64,000 nt of DNA from an uncultured Candidatus Saccharibacteria bacterium (GCA_963523995.1 CAURDR010000001.1:238021-302020), one strand, 5' to 3'. Shown: positions 20,225 through 56,593, counted from the stretch's first letter. Numbers and translations are program-made. The notes: generated by a model from the sequence alone, not told the origin.

Positions 20225-20280
20225 GGCATAAAAAATAGCCCCAAATGAGGACTCCTTAACGTTAAGTGTATTAATTATAG

Positions 20281-20335
20281 GGAATGTACGACAAGGCAGT
20301 CGTAGTGAAGAGCAGTCTGCTTCATCGCACATTCC
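20281..20335 (-). repeat. 3' trailer hairpin of cassette C
   Basis: ggaatgtacga/tcgcacattcc stem; contains gacaaggcagtc (20290-20301), complementary to leader 20908-20919. Confidence 0.8.
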
Positions 20336-20344
20336 ATGCGCGGA

Positions 20345-20785
20345 TCAATCCGCAAGCTCAGCAAGCTTTCTGGCGATAGCCAGGTTGCTCTTCTGATACA
20401 AGGGGATCTCCGTTGCGATGAGCTCTCTCAGGTCATGCAAAAAACCACTGTACTGGCTCCAGTAGCATCCTGGCCAATCGGATACGGGCGACTCCCCTTC
20501 CGCTATGGATGAGACTGCGCCTAGTATTTTGTCAATCTTTCCTTGTACTGCCTCCAATGACCCTTCCGGGCCATTATGGCAGATAGAGTCCAGTAGATCT
20601 CGAAGGGCTTCCGAATCCTCCTGGATGTGCGTCTTCTGGAGGTTAGGGTAATCACCCATGATATCGCTGATTCCATTATTATAGGCATTCAGCGTGGATA
20701 CCTTACCCTCCAGGATGCTTGCGTACACGGAGATTGCCTCCGTGTTTTTCGCGCACATGTGACTGAGAATCTCTTTCGTGAGCAT
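20345..20785 (-). CDS. Cassette C cargo protein (146 aa, unknown function)
   Basis: ORF lies between the conserved leader and trailer; purine-rich SD GGAAGGAAAGAG. Confidence 0.8.
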   Translation of the reverse strand: MLTKEILSHMCAKNTEAISVYASILEGKVSTLNAYNNGISDIMGDYPNLQKTHIQEDSEALRDLLDSICHNGPEGSLEAVQGKIDKILGAVSSIAEGESPVSDWPGCYWSQYSGFLHDLRELIATEIPLYQKSNLAIARKLAELAD

Positions 20786-20997
20786 TTTGCTCTTTCCTTC
20801 CTCTCATCCCCACTCGGCTGCGGTGAAGCACTTTTCTTCAGTGCAGGATGAGATCCTATCTCTTTTTGATATTTTTTAAAAAAAGAAATAGAAACTCATC
20901 CTGCAATGACTGCCTTGTCAAAGTGCGCTTTCGGACAATCAACTTGTCAACAAAAGCCACTTTCATTTATATCACTAATAGAATAAAATGTCAATAG
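20786..20997 (-). promoter_or_regulatory. Cassette C promoter and structured 5' leader (diverged copy)
   Basis: TTGACA(20994-89)-17 nt-TATAAA(20971-66); shares ttgtccgaaagcgNactttgaca, tatttcttttt and gatctcat blocks with 53067-53296 and 56360-56593. Confidence 0.85.
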
Positions 20998-52574: not shown

Positions 52575-52856
52575 ATGTCTGGCGAGCTACAGCCTTTTGA
52601 TACTGAAAGATATGTTGAAGAATTGAGTCGTATAATTGGGGAGCTTGGAGACATCGCAACTAGAGGGTCAGGGTTAGATGCCGAAGTGAAAAAGCTTACA
52701 TCGAAGGCTGAAGGTATTCTTGGAATATTGGGGTGCGTTTTGTGGTGCGCTACTTATCCTGACCGCGAAGAAGCGTTATCTGATGAGGATGCAGAGAGCG
52801 AATGGAAAATGGAATCTTTGCTAGAAGATATGGAATATAGAGACTATTATTTATAG
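52575..52856 (+). CDS. Small acidic hypothetical protein
   Basis: GGAGAGG SD; converges on tRNA-Val. Confidence 0.6.
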   Translation: MSGELQPFDTERYVEELSRIIGELGDIATRGSGLDAEVKKLTSKAEGILGILGCVLWCATYPDREEALSDEDAESEWKMESLLEDMEYRDYYL

Positions 52857-52976: not shown

Positions 52977-53066
52977 GTAATTACATCTGTCGTTTTATTT
53001 AACAAATTCGTGATGTGAGATAATTATAGTTCAGGTTTCAAGTCCTGACAAGTTACGCCGAGCATA

Positions 53067-53296
53067 TTCTATTGACTTTTTTACGCAAGTGTGGTATAAA
53101 TGAAAGTAGCTTTCGCTGATGAGTTGAGTAAATCCTTGTCCGAAAGTGAACTTTGACAGGCAATCGAACACAAGATGAGGTTTTATTTCTTTTTAACCCG
53201 CCATAAGAGAACTAAGATCTCATCTTGTGTTGTTAAGAGAACAATGCTTCGCTGCACACCCGCAGAGATGAGAACACCAGAAGAAAGGTGAAAACC
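53067..53296 (+). promoter_or_regulatory. Cassette A promoter and structured 5' leader
   Basis: TTGACT(53072-77)-17 nt-TATAAA(53095-100); stems 53103-15/53141-54 and 53167-79/53219-31; near-identical to the reverse complement of 56466-56593. Confidence 0.9.
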
Positions 53297-53779
53297 ATGC
53301 CTACCTATGCCGTAGAGGTGATTAGTCATCTCATCAATGACGCATATTCGAATTATCTCGAATTTAGTCGTCTCCTTCGTCAATGGGGAACTGCATCCCT
53401 GTCCCTAAAAGTTCCATCAGAGGAACAGCAGAGGTTTCGACAGATGAATCGCGATGCGATGGAGGCAATGAAGTCGATGAAGGACTACGCTGAGTCTCTG
53501 TGCCGCGAAAATTACGGCTCTTCGCTGACGCAAATCGGGGAAGAAGTTTACTCTCAGGCTCAAGTATGCATTGATGCTATTTCAGCTCGGTCTGAATGAT
53601 GCATTGAGGAACTGCCATACAGAGAGCATGCGTATAAAACTTCTGTGGACAGTCATACGAACGCACTCCTTGAGCTACTCCGAAGGGTCAAGCGTGCAGG
53701 TGACATCTTGAAGAAGTCTGATGAATTCGAGTCCGTTCGGGCTTACCAACTTTATCAGTACTACAGGTACATCTCGTAG
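53297..53779 (+). pseudogene. Cassette A cargo ORF interrupted by an in-frame TGA at 53597-99 (100 aa, or 160 aa if read through)
   Basis: The frame stays open for 59 more codons to TAG 53777-79, just before the trailer. Confidence 0.6.
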
Positions 53780-53789
53780 ACGCCCCGTC

Positions 53790-53882
53790 TCTACATGACA
53801 GGTGATTGTTCTTTTACGATTGCCTGTCATGTAGACTCTGAACTTATAACATTAAAAATCACCCTAACTACGGGTGATTTTC
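53790..53882 (+). repeat. Cassette A 3' trailer hairpin plus bidirectional terminator
   Basis: tctacatgacagg/cctgtcatgtaga; cgattgcctgtca (53817-29) complements leader 53154-66; aaaatcaccc/gggtgatttt. Confidence 0.85.
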
Positions 53883-53905
53883 TTATGGTGAAAAATTTCA
53901 GTTCT

Positions 53906-53990
53906 TGGTGCGGATGAAAGGACTTGAACCTTCACGCCGTGAGGCACATGCTCCTAAGGCATGCGTGTCTACCAATTCCACCACATCCGC
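53906..53990 (-). tRNA. tRNA-Leu(TAG)
   Basis: catgc-ctTAGga-gcatg; long variable arm; CCA. Confidence 0.95.
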
Positions 53991-54074
53991 ATAACCCGAT
54001 TATATCAAAACAAATTCTACTTATCAACTGCCCGCGCTTATGTTAAAATTGAAGTAACATACTAAGGAGGGTTG

Positions 54075-55685
54075 ATGAATAAAGTTGCGAAATATTTGAA
54101 TGAACATCTTAGTGGCGAAGTCGTGTCGCAGGATTTTGCATTGAGTCAAGTTGAAGTTGACAATGGACTTTTGGCGCGCCGACCAGAAATGATTGTTCGT
54201 GCGGCTAATATGAACGACATCAGGAAAGTGATGCGATTTTGTTCTCAATTGGCAGAGAAAGGTCATGTTTTACCTGTATTTGTTCGTGGTTGTGGCAATG
54301 ATGAAACTGGCGCAGCGACGAATAAAGGTATTGCAATTGACGAAAAAACGTATATGAATCGTGTGATTGGTATTGATCCTCGCCAGCAACTGATTCATGC
54401 TCAAGCGGGGATTTCTCTTTCGGCAATCAACGCAACTTTGTCTACTCATAAAGGCTTGGGTCTGCCGCGAACTTCATATGTGGCGGAAGAAGGCACGATT
54501 GGTGGCGCAATTAACACAGCTCCGTCCGGAGTGTTATCTGGCGCGCATGGTCGTTTTGCTGACACGATTCAGCAGCTTGAAATTGTCCTAAGTAATGGTG
54601 ACGTGATTCAGACTGGGCGCATATCTCGACGCGAATTAAGTAAGAAAAAAGGATTATCGACGTTTGAGGGCGAGATTTATCGAGAGATTGACAATTTAAT
54701 CTCAGATAGCACCGAGCTGATTTCGCAAATGGATCCAGCTTTGCCAGATACGGTTGGCTACAGCGGGATTTCTCGAGTGAAGCAAAAAGACGGGTCGTTT
54801 GACCTGACACCGCTGTTTATTGGTAGTCAGGGAAGTCTGGGCGTGATTTGCGAAGTTATTATGAAGGCGCAATTTATTCGTCCAGAATATTCAGTCGTTG
54901 CCGCATCATATAAAAAGTTGCCAGACGCGCAATCAGCCGTGGAATTAGCGATGAAAAATAAGGCGTCGGCGGTGGAAATAATCGACGGGCGATTCTTCCG
55001 TCAGGCTGCGGTCGTCGGTAAAGTGGTTGAGTGGGCGCCGAAAGAATGCTTTAAGGGTGTGGTGGTCTTGGCTATCTTTGACGACTTTTCTGATAGAGCG
55101 CGTAATAAAGCCGCGAAGAAATTGACTCGAAAATTGGAATCATCAGAAGCGATTGACATAAAAACTCTGCACTTGGAAGAGCAGGATTTGTTCAGCTTAC
55201 ACTCTGTTTTGGCTTTGGCGGAAACTCCAAGCGAGCCGCATATGATTACGCCACGCGTTTTCTCAGGGATTTTAATGGCGCCAGAAAAGATTGATAGTTT
55301 CCTTAGTGAGTTGAAGTCGTTGGAATCTAAGTACGGCGTGGATTTGCCAGTTTTTGTTGATTTTTCAAGCGATTATATTTCTCTACATCCGACGTTTGAT
55401 AGTAAAAAGGTGAGTGAACGCCAGAAGATTCTTCAGTTGTTGGCGGAAATTTCTCAGATTGTTGATAAGTATGAAGGTTCTTTTGCGGGCTTTGGTGGTG
55501 ACGGAAGATTGAAAGCTAACTTTATTTATAAGAACCTGCCAGATGATGAAAAACAATTATACGCGAAGGTGAAAAAAATCTTTGATCCAGCTGGAATTTT
55601 TAATCCAGGAATTAAAGCGGAAGCTCAGCCAAAGGAGTTGGCGGCGGAGTTAAACGCGTGGTGTAAGCTTCGTAATCAAGCTTGA
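54075..55685 (+). CDS. FAD-binding oxidoreductase (GlcD/D-lactate dehydrogenase-like)
   Basis: GTIGGAI, FIGSQGSLGVI, KKIFDPAGIFNPG. Confidence 0.85.
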   Translation: MNKVAKYLNEHLSGEVVSQDFALSQVEVDNGLLARRPEMIVRAANMNDIRKVMRFCSQLAEKGHVLPVFVRGCGNDETGAATNKGIAIDEKTYMNRVIGIDPRQQLIHAQAGISLSAINATLSTHKGLGLPRTSYVAEEGTIGGAINTAPSGVLSGAHGRFADTIQQLEIVLSNGDVIQTGRISRRELSKKKGLSTFEGEIYREIDNLISDSTELISQMDPALPDTVGYSGISRVKQKDGSFDLTPLFIGSQGSLGVICEVIMKAQFIRPEYSVVAASYKKLPDAQSAVELAMKNKASAVEIIDGRFFRQAAVVGKVVEWAPKECFKGVVVLAIFDDFSDRARNKAAKKLTRKLESSEAIDIKTLHLEEQDLFSLHSVLALAETPSEPHMITPRVFSGILMAPEKIDSFLSELKSLESKYGVDLPVFVDFSSDYISLHPTFDSKKVSERQKILQLLAEISQIVDKYEGSFAGFGGDGRLKANFIYKNLPDDEKQLYAKVKKIFDPAGIFNPGIKAEAQPKELAAELNAWCKLRNQA

Positions 55686-55725
55686 TGTTGGGCGAGAATT
55701 GGGCTATAATTGACGCGTAGCCCAT

Positions 55726-55812
55726 GCGGATGTGGCGGAATTGGTAGACGCGCTAGCTTCAGGTGCTAGTGTACGCAAGTACGTGAAGGTTCAAGTCCTT
55801 TCATCCGCACCA
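55726..55812 (+). tRNA. tRNA-Leu(CAG)
   Basis: ctagc-ttCAGgt-gctag; long variable arm; CCA. Confidence 0.95.
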
Positions 55813-55837
55813 ATATTTGACAATTTTTCACCATAAG

Positions 55838-55927
55838 AAAATCACCCATTCTCAGGGTGATTTTTAATAACATAAGTTCAGAGTCTACATGACAGGCAAT
55901 CGTAAGAACAACCGCCTGCCATGTAGA
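55838..55927 (-). repeat. Cassette B 3' trailer hairpin plus bidirectional terminator
   Basis: Inverted homolog of 53790-53882; tgacaggcaatcg (55890-902) complements leader 56494-506. Confidence 0.85.
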
Positions 55928-55939
55928 AATTGGAAATTG

Positions 55940-56359
55940 CTAGAGTTCCATGACGAAACTCTGGGAGAGTCCCATGACGTGGAACAGAGACCTACGGATC
56001 ATGATCTGGAGATCGGTCACCAAATCCGCCTCCTCTTCATCCTCCATGGGGATATTCCCCAAGGTTTTCTCGACGGTTTTGAATTCAAGTGCGGCCGAAA
56101 TGGTCACGTCGAGGACCTTTTCTGCAAACGCTTCCTTGTTAATTTCCTCCTCGTCATACTCCTCACAAATGTGTGTGAGACCCACGAGATTTTCAATATG
56201 AGTCTCGGCTGAACGGACGGAAGCTTCGAAAAGGATCCCCTTGATGGGGTCTTGAAAATGGAATTCATCATCAAGGATGGCGCGCCTGAGACTATCCCAG
56301 TATAGCCTGGTTACCATAGCAAGCATGGTAAGGTTTTCCATGTAGGTGCTGAATTTCAT
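55940..56359 (-). CDS. Cassette B cargo protein (139 aa, acidic, unknown function)
   Basis: ATG 56359 after GGAAGGTG SD; lies between leader and trailer. Confidence 0.8.
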   Translation of the reverse strand: MKFSTYMENLTMLAMVTRLYWDSLRRAILDDEFHFQDPIKGILFEASVRSAETHIENLVGLTHICEEYDEEEINKEAFAEKVLDVTISAALEFKTVEKTLGNIPMEDEEEADLVTDLQIMIRRSLFHVMGLSQSFVMEL

Positions 56360-56593
56360 GGTGGTATTCACCTTCCTGGTGTTCTCTCATCTGCTCATCT
56401 GCGGGAGTGCAGTGTATTGTTCTTTCAATACAAGATGAGATCTTATCTCTCTTATGATGGTTCTAAAAAAGAAATAAAACCTCACCTTGTATTCGATTGC
56501 CTGTCAAAGTACGCTTTCGGACAAGGATTTACTCAACTCATCAACGAAAGCTACTCTCATTTATACCACACTTGCGTAAAAAAGTCAATAGAA
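56360..56593 (-). promoter_or_regulatory. Cassette B promoter and structured 5' leader
   Basis: TTGACT(56588-83)-17 nt-TATAAA(56565-60); homolog of the cassette A leader. Confidence 0.9.

Follow-up and report, generated by a model that had tools for sequence, protein, structure and literature searches.

What kind of element keeps its non-coding borders almost constant while the genes between them differ altogether? The question is raised by a stretch of 64,000 nucleotides from an uncultured Candidatus Saccharibacteria bacterium (GCA_963523995.1 CAURDR010000001.1:238021-302020), referred to as the window, meaning the whole stretch that was analysed. A first-pass annotation had pointed to three single-gene cassettes in it, A and B in opposite orientation between positions 53067 and 56593 and a more distant copy C. 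Comparison of sequences and predicted folds makes it probable, in our opinion, that A, B, C and a fourth copy, D, belong to a Saccharibacteria-wide family of single-gene units, in which a cis-regulatory mRNA chassis doubles as homology arms for replacement of the cargo gene.

The starting observation was confirmed. A 128-nt inverted repeat links 53067-53194 (A) with 56466-56593 (B), and its halves differ at exactly 6 positions, as had been counted by eye. A second inverted repeat corresponds to the trailers (53814-53897 and 55822-55905), which had been called near-identical and differ at 7 of 84 nt. The two open reading frames (ORFs) have no nucleotide similarity, the best blastn match being only 10 nt long (expect value, E, 0.29), also in agreement with the first-pass annotation. 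The proposed promoter, TTGAC(T/A) and TATAAA separated by 17 nt, is present in A, B and C, while the leader, estimated at ~190 nt, measures ~195 nt, and the 3' hairpin has 46 nt in A. Copy C (20226-20994, minus strand), described as diverged but built of the same blocks, keeps every block of the A/B layout. A count of copies had been recommended, and BLAST together with a covariance-model search revealed four full copies in the 690-kb source genome, A, B, C and, on contig C9, D. Besides this fourth copy, leader-trailer complementarity and switch helices are features that go beyond the earlier description.

Blocks follow one another in a fixed order: promoter, 5' hairpin, a box of 12-15 nt, long hairpin, second helix beside the Shine-Dalgarno sequence, cargo ORF, and a trailer with the complement of the box. 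In the window they are located as follows (R1 is a covariance model comprised of the box and the long hairpin):

53072..53100, plus strand: copy A promoter, TTGACT at 53072-53077, 17-nt spacer, TATAAA at 53095-53100; read from the sequence, near-identical in B
53103..53154, plus strand: copy A 5'-terminal stem-loop, GCUUUCG/CGAAAGU enclosing GAUGAG/CUUGUC, in the minimum-free-energy and centroid folds
53154..53166, plus strand: copy A box, TGACAGGCAATCG, single-stranded in the fold and exact complement of 53817-53829
53167..53230, plus strand: copy A long leader hairpin, 5' arm ACACAAGATGAG, 3' arm CTCATCTTGTGT, from the fold
53218..53273, plus strand: copy A alternative domain, TCTCATCT (53218-53225) pairable with AGATGAGA (53266-53273), enclosing two small hairpins
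53297..53779, plus strand: copy A cargo ORF of 160 codons, one of which, at 53597-53599, is an in-frame TGA
53790..53835, plus strand: copy A trailer hairpin, 46 nt, its 3' arm holding the antibox CGATTGCCTGTCA at 53817-53829
53854..53886, plus strand: copy A intrinsic terminator-like hairpin, AAAAATCACCC...GGGTGATTTTT and a U-run, from the fold
56360..56588, minus strand: copy B promoter and leader, TTGACT at 56588-56583, 17-nt spacer, TATAAA at 56565-56560, box at 56506-56494; R1 88.2 bits
55940..56359, minus strand: copy B cargo ORF, 139 amino acids (aa), four-helix bundle in the AlphaFold2 model (predicted local distance difference test, pLDDT, 90.4)
55838..55927, minus strand: copy B trailer, hairpin at 55927-55884, terminator-like hairpin at 55864-55838
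20786..20994, minus strand: copy C promoter and leader, TTGACA at 20994-20989, 17-nt spacer, TATAAA at 20971-20966, box TGACAAGGCAGTC at 20920-20908; R1 74.7 bits
20345..20785, minus strand: copy C cargo ORF, 146 aa, helical bundle in the AlphaFold2 model (pLDDT 86)
20226..20335, minus strand: copy C trailer, hairpin at 20335-20281, antibox GACTGCCTTGTC at 20301-20290, then a terminator-like hairpin (approximate coordinates)

A simple consensus scan for promoters and terminators did not list those of the window copies. The promoters were missed because TATAAA is without the T demanded at position 6, and the terminators, being unlisted, are therefore called from the folds alone.

The feature that ties the two ends of a cassette together is complementarity between leader and trailer. 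The box, in general a single-stranded segment of 12-15 nt with the sequence UUUGACARG..., is in each copy the exact complement of the 3' arm of its own trailer hairpin, with 12-13 perfect pairs in A-D. The pairs are formed by TGACAGGCAATCG with CGATTGCCTGTCA in A and B, GACAAGGCAGTC with GACTGCCTTGTC in C, and GACAAGCAGCCT with AGGCTGCTTGTC in D, and duplex energies are -21 to -27 kcal/mol (-24.0 kcal/mol in copy A). In the duplex register of 14 cassettes, compensatory changes are found at positions 4, 6, 7, 8, 9, 10 and 11. Only the sense strand admits G.U pairs, which on the other strand, or in DNA, would be mismatches. The mean number of contiguous pairs is 12.6 in cognate combinations, 9.2 in non-cognate ones and 7.4 with shuffled trailers, a comparison limited by relatedness among the copies.

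An independent box test was applied to loci that had taken no part in forming the idea, by searching downstream for a perfect complement of at least 10 nt to the locus's own box and comparing the outcome with 300 shuffles. Among 19 new model hits in other genera, 13 passed, each with at most 5 of 300 shuffles doing so. The antibox is located 37-80 nt behind the stop codon in ten of them, at +264 in one, and at +755, inside the next cassette, in another; in the last, it is found 35 nt before the stop codon called by the script, which had picked a wrong frame. The test was also passed by 19 of 24 pattern-scan hits from public genomes, a set in which the pattern fixed the box core and the trailer played no part in selection; 15 of these 24 have a hammerhead core within 95 nt. 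In strain cassettes around an oxidase gene 95-99% identical to that of the window, box and antibox types match in 8 of 9 cases.

The leader itself folds far better than shuffled sequences (z -4.3). Pairs of its 5'-terminal stem-loop are compensatory between copies, with GAUGAG in A and B corresponding to GACAAG in C and D, and GCUUUCG to GCUUUUG. The segment AGATGAGA (53266-53273) is a second copy of the core of the long hairpin's 5' arm, placed shortly upstream of the Shine-Dalgarno sequence and the ATG at 53297. Instead of pairing within the long hairpin, its 3' arm (CUCAUCUUG) can bind this GAUGAG(G) element beside the Shine-Dalgarno sequence, and therefore has two possible partners. Fourteen aligned copies, taken from 10 genomes, served to measure covariation of both helices. 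In the long hairpin, the outer stem reaches 95% pairing, with 6 of its 13 pairs changed on both sides; its covariation score is reached by 0 of 500 shuffles, and all slid registers drop to 35-59% paired; RNAalifold predicts 23 pairs in this hairpin, 17 of them with compensatory changes. For the alternative helix, pairing amounts to 92.9% and both sides have changed in 3 of 8 pairs; in folding calculations it forms once the 5' arm is blocked.

Two other interpretations of the leader were rejected. A hammerhead was considered because of CTGATGAG and CGAAAG in copy A. Instead, B carries TTGATGAG, and TTGACAAG is found in C and D; hammerhead models give no score in this region, and these bases form an ordinary hairpin. 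A leader peptide was considered for the AUG within the conserved AAGAUGAGG, which opens frames that differ in length and phase among the copies; it was rejected because conservation follows base-pairing.

Trailers of A and B also fold far better than shuffles (z -7.8 and -7.9, respectively). The 5' arm of the trailer hairpin is an imperfect, G.U-rich imitation of the box. Every difference between the 5' arms of A and B preserves a G.U or G-C pair on the sense strand, and their antibox arms are the same, that of B reading as TGACAGGCAATCG on the plus strand at 55890-55902. In A-D the 3' end is comprised of this local hairpin and an intrinsic terminator, whereas in most genera it corresponds to a type III hammerhead. 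A few bases after the antibox, trailers of relatives continue with GUUCGCUC, a stem I hairpin, CUGAUGA, a stem II hairpin, GAAA and GCGAAC, thus holding the complete core of a type III hammerhead (RF00008), with compensatory variation in stem III. The same core is found in the der locus of the source genome, and cleavage at these sites is putative. A core of the form CUGANGA...GAAA, with stems I and II closed, stem III open and an NUH site, is absent from the trailers of A, B, C and D.

The der-locus element lies outside the window (G000:C3:49426-49480, locus L048) and scores 35.1 bits, below threshold; it follows an 81-aa glycine-rich membrane peptide and has a C/D-type promoter in front. In addition, a conserved GCGAACCUCUGUC was noticed, by reading and in folds, upstream of the antibox in trailers of L050, L051, L054 and L044. 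Pairing of this sequence with GUUCGC, the 5' strand of hammerhead stem III, is possible and would close down the ribozyme, and the box might open such a structure.

A relation to a second catalogued RNA was disclosed by the relatives. A scan of the window at Rfam gathering thresholds returned only 6 tRNAs, and a permissive scan of 52980-53900 gave chance-level matches to microRNAs and small nucleolar RNAs (best E 0.15). Leaders of the same genus, on the other hand, match RAGATH-10 (RF03147, gathering threshold 41.2 bits) between the long hairpin and the start codon, with 55.9 bits in locus L022, 33.8 bits in another genome, and 34.1 bits in a cassette of a strain whose oxidase is 99% identical. 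RAGATH-10 was found in 9 of 151 family genomes, in 4 of them above threshold, and in 12 of 20 pattern-scan loci, 11 at or above threshold and each time overlapping the 3' end of the leader model. In most genera, the second (alternative) leader helix is P1, the closing helix of RAGATH-10, and the alternative domain of copy A is its positional counterpart. The closing helix, CCUCAUCU with GGAUGAGG, occupies the same position just upstream of the purine-rich ribosome-binding stretch (AGAAAG) and the start codon as TCTCATCT/AGATGAGA in A. Of the consensus's three inner hairpins, only two small ones appear when A-D are folded with a blocked 5' arm, and the first (with the CAUCCG loop) is missing. 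The Rfam model spans about the last 80 nt of the ~190-nt leader. RAGATH-10 thus seems to make up the final third of a longer leader, and on the modelled folds the window copies are a reduced form of its domain, without the first inner hairpin.

In the literature searched, we found no account of an upstream competing arm, a box or a trailer complement of RAGATH-10, and the word RAGATH does not occur in the main text of the paper introducing the motifs (PMC5737381). The first-pass annotation could assign the cassettes to no known family. This holds for the window copies, which stay below Rfam thresholds, and does not hold for their relatives, which match RAGATH-10 and the type III hammerhead. 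The element is not wholly unknown, since its relatives carry two catalogued RNAs.

Distribution of the frame was approached in two ways. Model R1 has four matches in sense orientation in the source genome, and matches in 27 of 151 sampled family genomes, which represent 21 of 95 genera, as a rule with one to three in each genome. A loose DNA pattern was also run over about 186,000 species genomes. It gave mostly chance matches in unrelated taxa, and of 80 loci fetched only the 23 model-positive ones were used; 22 of them are titled Saccharibacteria, Saccharimonadales or Saccharimonas. The remaining one, L115, is a 1,078-nt contig in a metagenome-assembled genome titled Spirochaetia, with a Saccharibacteria-type leader (66 bits), and is probably a binning error. 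Judged by these matches, the frame is family-wide in Saccharibacteria. The earlier proposal of a fixed RNA frame around variable cargo is thus extended to about 20 genera, across which the frame is conserved and covarying.

That the cargo is exchanged at fixed chromosomal sites can be seen among strains whose FAD (flavin adenine dinucleotide) oxidase is 95-99% identical to that of the window, the two sides of this gene being judged by flanking sequence. On the tRNA-Val side, the cargo is a 160-codon ORF with a stop in the source genome, none in G207, and two different 69-aa ORFs in G202 and G201. The other side carries an ORF of 139 aa in the source genome, 106 aa in G207 and 135 aa in G202, and tandem cassettes of 76 and 144 aa in G203. 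Leaders of these strain cassettes are 68-88% identical and trailers 59-90%, while coding parts are at the level of unrelated sequence. The same sites thus differ completely between the 5 strains, in which the adjacent gene is nearly identical, in line with the first-pass suggestion of swappable cargo. At the der locus, three genomes, the source genome and two of the same genus, have promoter and ribozyme in common and three different inserts, and in another genome the site of D is occupied by a complete RAGATH-10 scoring 80 bits, a different cargo and a hammerhead. The turnover pattern is consistent with what would be expected from recombination through conserved flanks.

Some arrangements at these and related sites deserve separate mention. 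A cargo-less cassette, L218 (G207), is located beside tRNA-Val, with about 70 nt between leader hairpin and trailer hairpin. Head-to-tail pairs of cassettes 560-770 nt apart were observed in L075/L093 (G041), L089 (G109), L219 (G203) and L080 (G102), and the second leader of the G041 tandem precedes an acyl-CoA dehydrogenase. The oxidase gene itself lies between two inverted tRNA-Leu genes (window 53906-55812; L216-L220):

53906..53990, minus strand: tRNA-Leu(tag), which together with tRNA-Leu(cag) makes up the inner portion of the inverted repeat that surrounds the FAD oxidase gene
55726..55812, plus strand: tRNA-Leu(cag), partner of tRNA-Leu(tag) at the other flank of the FAD oxidase gene

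In G201, G202 and G203 the oxidase is, with respect to the tRNA genes, in opposite orientation to that in the source genome and G207, which on sequence comparison looks like an inversion through the 5' halves of the tRNA genes (inverted repeat I5).

Cargo proteins were characterized next to their frames. The first-pass annotation gave ORFs of 140-160 aa. B has 139 aa and C 146 aa, and A reaches 160 codons only if its in-frame TGA is read through; under translation table 11 it encodes 103 aa from a GTG start or 100 from ATG. The frame stays open for 60 codons beyond the TGA. At this position five aligned homologues (four 85-93% identical, one 50%) have W, and so does a sixth homologue with a divergent N-terminal half. 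The TGA could represent a nonsense mutation, a truncated product or a sequencing error.

Relatives of these proteins are few even in very large libraries, with 7 hits for B, 9 for A and 11 for C (6 clear relatives; C among 1.84 billion representatives). For the A-D proteins, Pfam and PHROGs gave nothing above cut-off and PADLOC gave 0 hits, so that the roles guessed for the cargo in the first-pass annotation (toxins, effectors, anti-phage proteins) find no support. The best Pfam match of A, DUF2935, was rejected at 19.9 bits, below the 24.4 cut-off. Foldseek searches of the B and C models against PDB returned generic helical bundles only, none with E <= 0.001. ESM Atlas gave no usable match for D, and for the cargo of a relative only weak rows to heavy-metal-associated domain proteins (template-modelling score 0.36-0.51). 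Among 24 cargo proteins of related cassettes, only 3 pairs have E <= 0.01, and the only convincing one is B with a same-genus cargo (33% identity over 72 aa); hhalign among the families of A, B and C gives a probability of at most 1.2%. Window cargos are predicted to be soluble, acidic helical bundles of 139-184 aa, and elsewhere the same frame carries small membrane proteins or peptides, an acyl-CoA dehydrogenase and a DUF6197 protein, so that it is not restricted to a single protein family.

Base composition of cargos differs from that of their surroundings. In 16 of 18 newly found cassettes, guanine-plus-cytosine (G+C) content of the cargo is above the surrounding sequence, in 9 of them by at least ten points, and in the extreme case it is 72% (third positions 94%) compared to 49% around. 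Taken together, the sequence surrounding the G+C-rich cargos has 44-51% G+C. Such G+C-rich cargos, in loci L079, L088, L090, L092 and others, have 62-72% G+C (82-94% at third positions) in loci of 46-51%. In the window, third-position G+C is 61-62% in B and C and 42-50% in four housekeeping genes. This composition suggests a recent foreign origin of the G+C-rich cargos. Two of them had no match by tblastn among 50,697 phage records. An actinobacterial donor was also considered, and rejected as too thinly supported to be named: a sample of 301 genomes, from the phylum to which a genome titled Propionibacteriaceae belongs, has DUF6197 above cut-off in 5, of which one (G479) is flagged as unpublished.

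The explanation we favour joins these features as follows. The units would be single transcripts, with the frame acting at the RNA level as a post-transcriptional control device. Two mutually exclusive leader helices would decide whether the ribosome-binding region is free. The box would pair with the 3' untranslated region (UTR), in cis or via a fragment derived from the 3' UTR, coupling both ends of the mRNA, and this pairing could affect stability, translation or ribozyme cleavage. The 3' end would be set just behind the box duplex by ribozyme or terminator. Held constant by selection on RNA structure, frames would at the same time act as homology arms, and recombination through them would replace, delete or stack cargo genes; such swapping would explain why flanks are far more alike than ORFs.

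A bolder extension, which we regard as tentative and on balance unlikely, is that the frame is an RNA gene-capture chassis, entered by foreign genes through homologous exchange in the conserved flanks. The captured gene would be supplied with a promoter, a switchable leader, a 5'-3' self-pairing clamp and a 3' end defined by ribozyme or terminator. Hosts of these episymbionts are high-G+C actinobacteria, and the G+C-rich cargos could have been taken from them or from their phages.

Several observations weigh against the RNA-chassis explanation as a whole. By calculation, the long leader hairpin is favoured over the alternative fold by 13-30 kcal/mol (one outlier copy, L020 of G063, gave 3 kcal/mol, the block there covering only 5 nt of the 5' arm), and from energy alone the trailer hairpin of A-D, at about 20 bp, would be expected to win over the 13-bp box duplex. 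Each of the proposed switches would therefore depend on some trigger. Shuffle-based measures of covariation are inflated by relatedness among the sequences. By the strict criterion, 6 of the 19 and 5 of the 24 loci did not pass the box test, and the ninth of the strain cassettes is a hybrid with box and antibox of different types (1 mismatch and 3 wobbles). Window copies are below every Rfam threshold, with 0 hits to RF03147 at E <= 10 in the window and in the source genome, while all hammerhead hits, which are found in relatives and at the der locus and not in A-D, score 28.6-37.2 bits compared to the gathering score of 48.5. Box and antibox also form an inverted repeat in DNA, which leaves room for a DNA-level role; we consider such a role unlikely.

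Alternatives to the RNA chassis start from the position of A and B. Their likeness could be the by-product of a recent local inverted duplication of cassette and tRNA-Leu around the oxidase, with gene conversion, and the frame would then be functionless. The inverted repeat indeed extends across the trailers and into both tRNA-Leu genes, a model hit is found on only one side in each of two genomes of the same genus, G129 and G063, and the occurrence of the oxidase segment in both orientations among strains indicates that recombination between these repeats takes place. The same frame is found, however, at the unlinked sites of C and D and in 21 of 95 genera, gene conversion would homogenise the ORFs too, yet they are unrelated, and the compensatory changes in helices and leader-trailer duplex across the family largely refute this account, which we rate as very unlikely. 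A DNA-level mobile unit, in which box and antibox are terminal inverted repeats, or the trailer hairpin a folded attC-like recombination site, for a recombinase or transposase, would fit a 12-15-bp inverted repeat bracketing an ORF that is swapped, lost or tandemly stacked, often beside tRNA genes. Cassettes do resemble those of integrons: ORFs of unknown function stand singly next to a promoter, have an imperfect hairpin behind them, and are swapped and stacked. Each unit here has its own promoter and leader, though, and the conserved frame extends well beyond the inverted repeat, to promoter, 5' hairpin and terminator or ribozyme, with G.U pairs kept on the sense strand only. There is no IntI-type tyrosine recombinase nearby, the sole PF00589 match of the source genome being on another contig, C2. 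Concerning attC cores (RYYYAAC/GTTRRRY), no GTTRRRY was found within the trailers of A or B: matches at 53123 and 56531 fall in leader hairpin loops, and C has a single match (20261-20267), which belongs to the terminator region and the opposite strand. Target-site duplications were not observed, and tRNA adjacency, in 9 of 40 loci, is not clearly above chance. We regard a mobile unit of this kind as improbable.

The remaining alternatives concern the RNA itself. The antibox could act in trans, as part of a small RNA derived from the 3' UTR (antibox and terminator, or a fragment up to the hammerhead cut) that pairs with same-type boxes of all leaders and unites them in one regulon. Within the trailer, conservation is highest in the antibox arm, which is the same in A and B whereas the arm facing it varies, and one box type is shared by A, B and a same-genus copy, so cross-pairing is possible; but box types differ within one genome (A and B, C, and D), each fits its own trailer best, and cis pairing is thus favoured, leaving a trans-acting regulon with a small chance in our estimate. 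Loci similar to type I toxin-antitoxin systems would have a fold-back keeping the toxin mRNA inert until 3' processing. In mRNAs of the hok family, the 5' end is paired with a 3' element, covariations are coupled and leader hairpins have alternatives; the covarying 5'-3' pairing and competing helices described here are similar to these hallmarks, and some cargos of relatives are small membrane proteins. We find this reading hardly credible for cassettes whose cargo is not a small hydrophobic toxin but, in the window, a soluble acidic bundle, and elsewhere includes the dehydrogenase and the DUF6197 protein, and where no antisense RNA gene is evident. Just as implausible is that the leader is a free-standing small RNA gene with unrelated ORFs as downstream neighbours, as the Rfam typing of RAGATH-10 ('Gene; sRNA') might imply: in all copies read, the 3' strand of the closing helix meets the Shine-Dalgarno sequence and the start codon within about 10-25 nt, the complement of the box sits behind the ORF stop codon, and no terminator separates leader and ORF.

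With the RNA chassis as the preferred explanation, the closest known counterparts of its two sides can be compared. In the part available of the relevant sources, a 14-bp contact of the 5' UTR with the 3' UTR of hbs in B. subtilis modulates cleavage by RNase Y (PMC5737220), and 5'/3'-UTR pairing in icaR of S. aureus blocks the ribosome-binding site (PMC7821165). The predicted duplex of the cassettes would similarly join, by about 12-15 bp, the 5' and 3' UTRs of one mRNA. It differs in being a portable feature of a frame common to many unrelated genes and covarying across genera, while those cases are single genes, and unlike that reported for icaR, it does not cover the Shine-Dalgarno sequence and abuts a ribozyme. 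PeSL units of T4-type phages, as far as the source is available, are conserved promoter and stem-loop terminator units flanking ORFans of unknown function, and recombination between them leads to insertion, deletion and replacement between close relatives (PMC2839356). The cassettes share with them conserved flanks and replacement of ORFans, an analogy of behaviour with no relation in sequence. PeSLs are short phage units without a long structured leader, 5'-3' complementarity or a ribozyme, whereas here the host is cellular, with a reduced genome, and cassettes are placed between housekeeping genes.

In the literature searched, the whole frame, its 5'-3' pairing and a role in gene replacement are not described; RAGATH-10 is not named, hammerhead ribozymes are not mentioned together with Saccharibacteria, and papers listed for Saccharibacteria/TM7 ribozymes were irrelevant. 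Known bacterial 5'/3'-UTR interactions are, in the available part of one source, a handful of single genes (PMC7821165). A portable 5'/3'-UTR pairing common to many unrelated genes would be a new regulatory principle. Bacterial hammerheads and RAGATH motifs have been catalogued for years, to our knowledge without a known role, and their position as two ends of one mRNA frame, joined by a covarying duplex, offers hypotheses for both. Were the capture chassis true, it would give these RNAs a concrete role and represent a functional counterpart of integrons without an integrase. Saccharibacteria have tiny genomes and live on other bacteria. The cassettes are spots of the fastest change in gene content between near-identical strains, and thereby a place to seek genes for interaction with hosts or phages; the frame might also be usable as an expression tool in these hard-to-engineer organisms.

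Finally, two loci were observed in addition to the full cassettes. Just upstream of cassette A, between typA and tRNA-Val, a 93-aa acidic ORF without a family is located at 52575-52856; its upstream region is AT-rich and has no match to the leader model. Outside the window, a promoter-only copy was detected at G000:C1:319656-319704 (locus L005, minus strand), comprised of the A/B-type promoter and the first ~20 transcribed bases. It precedes a short, different leader and a 129-aa membrane protein, and the promoter module is therefore also reused on its own.

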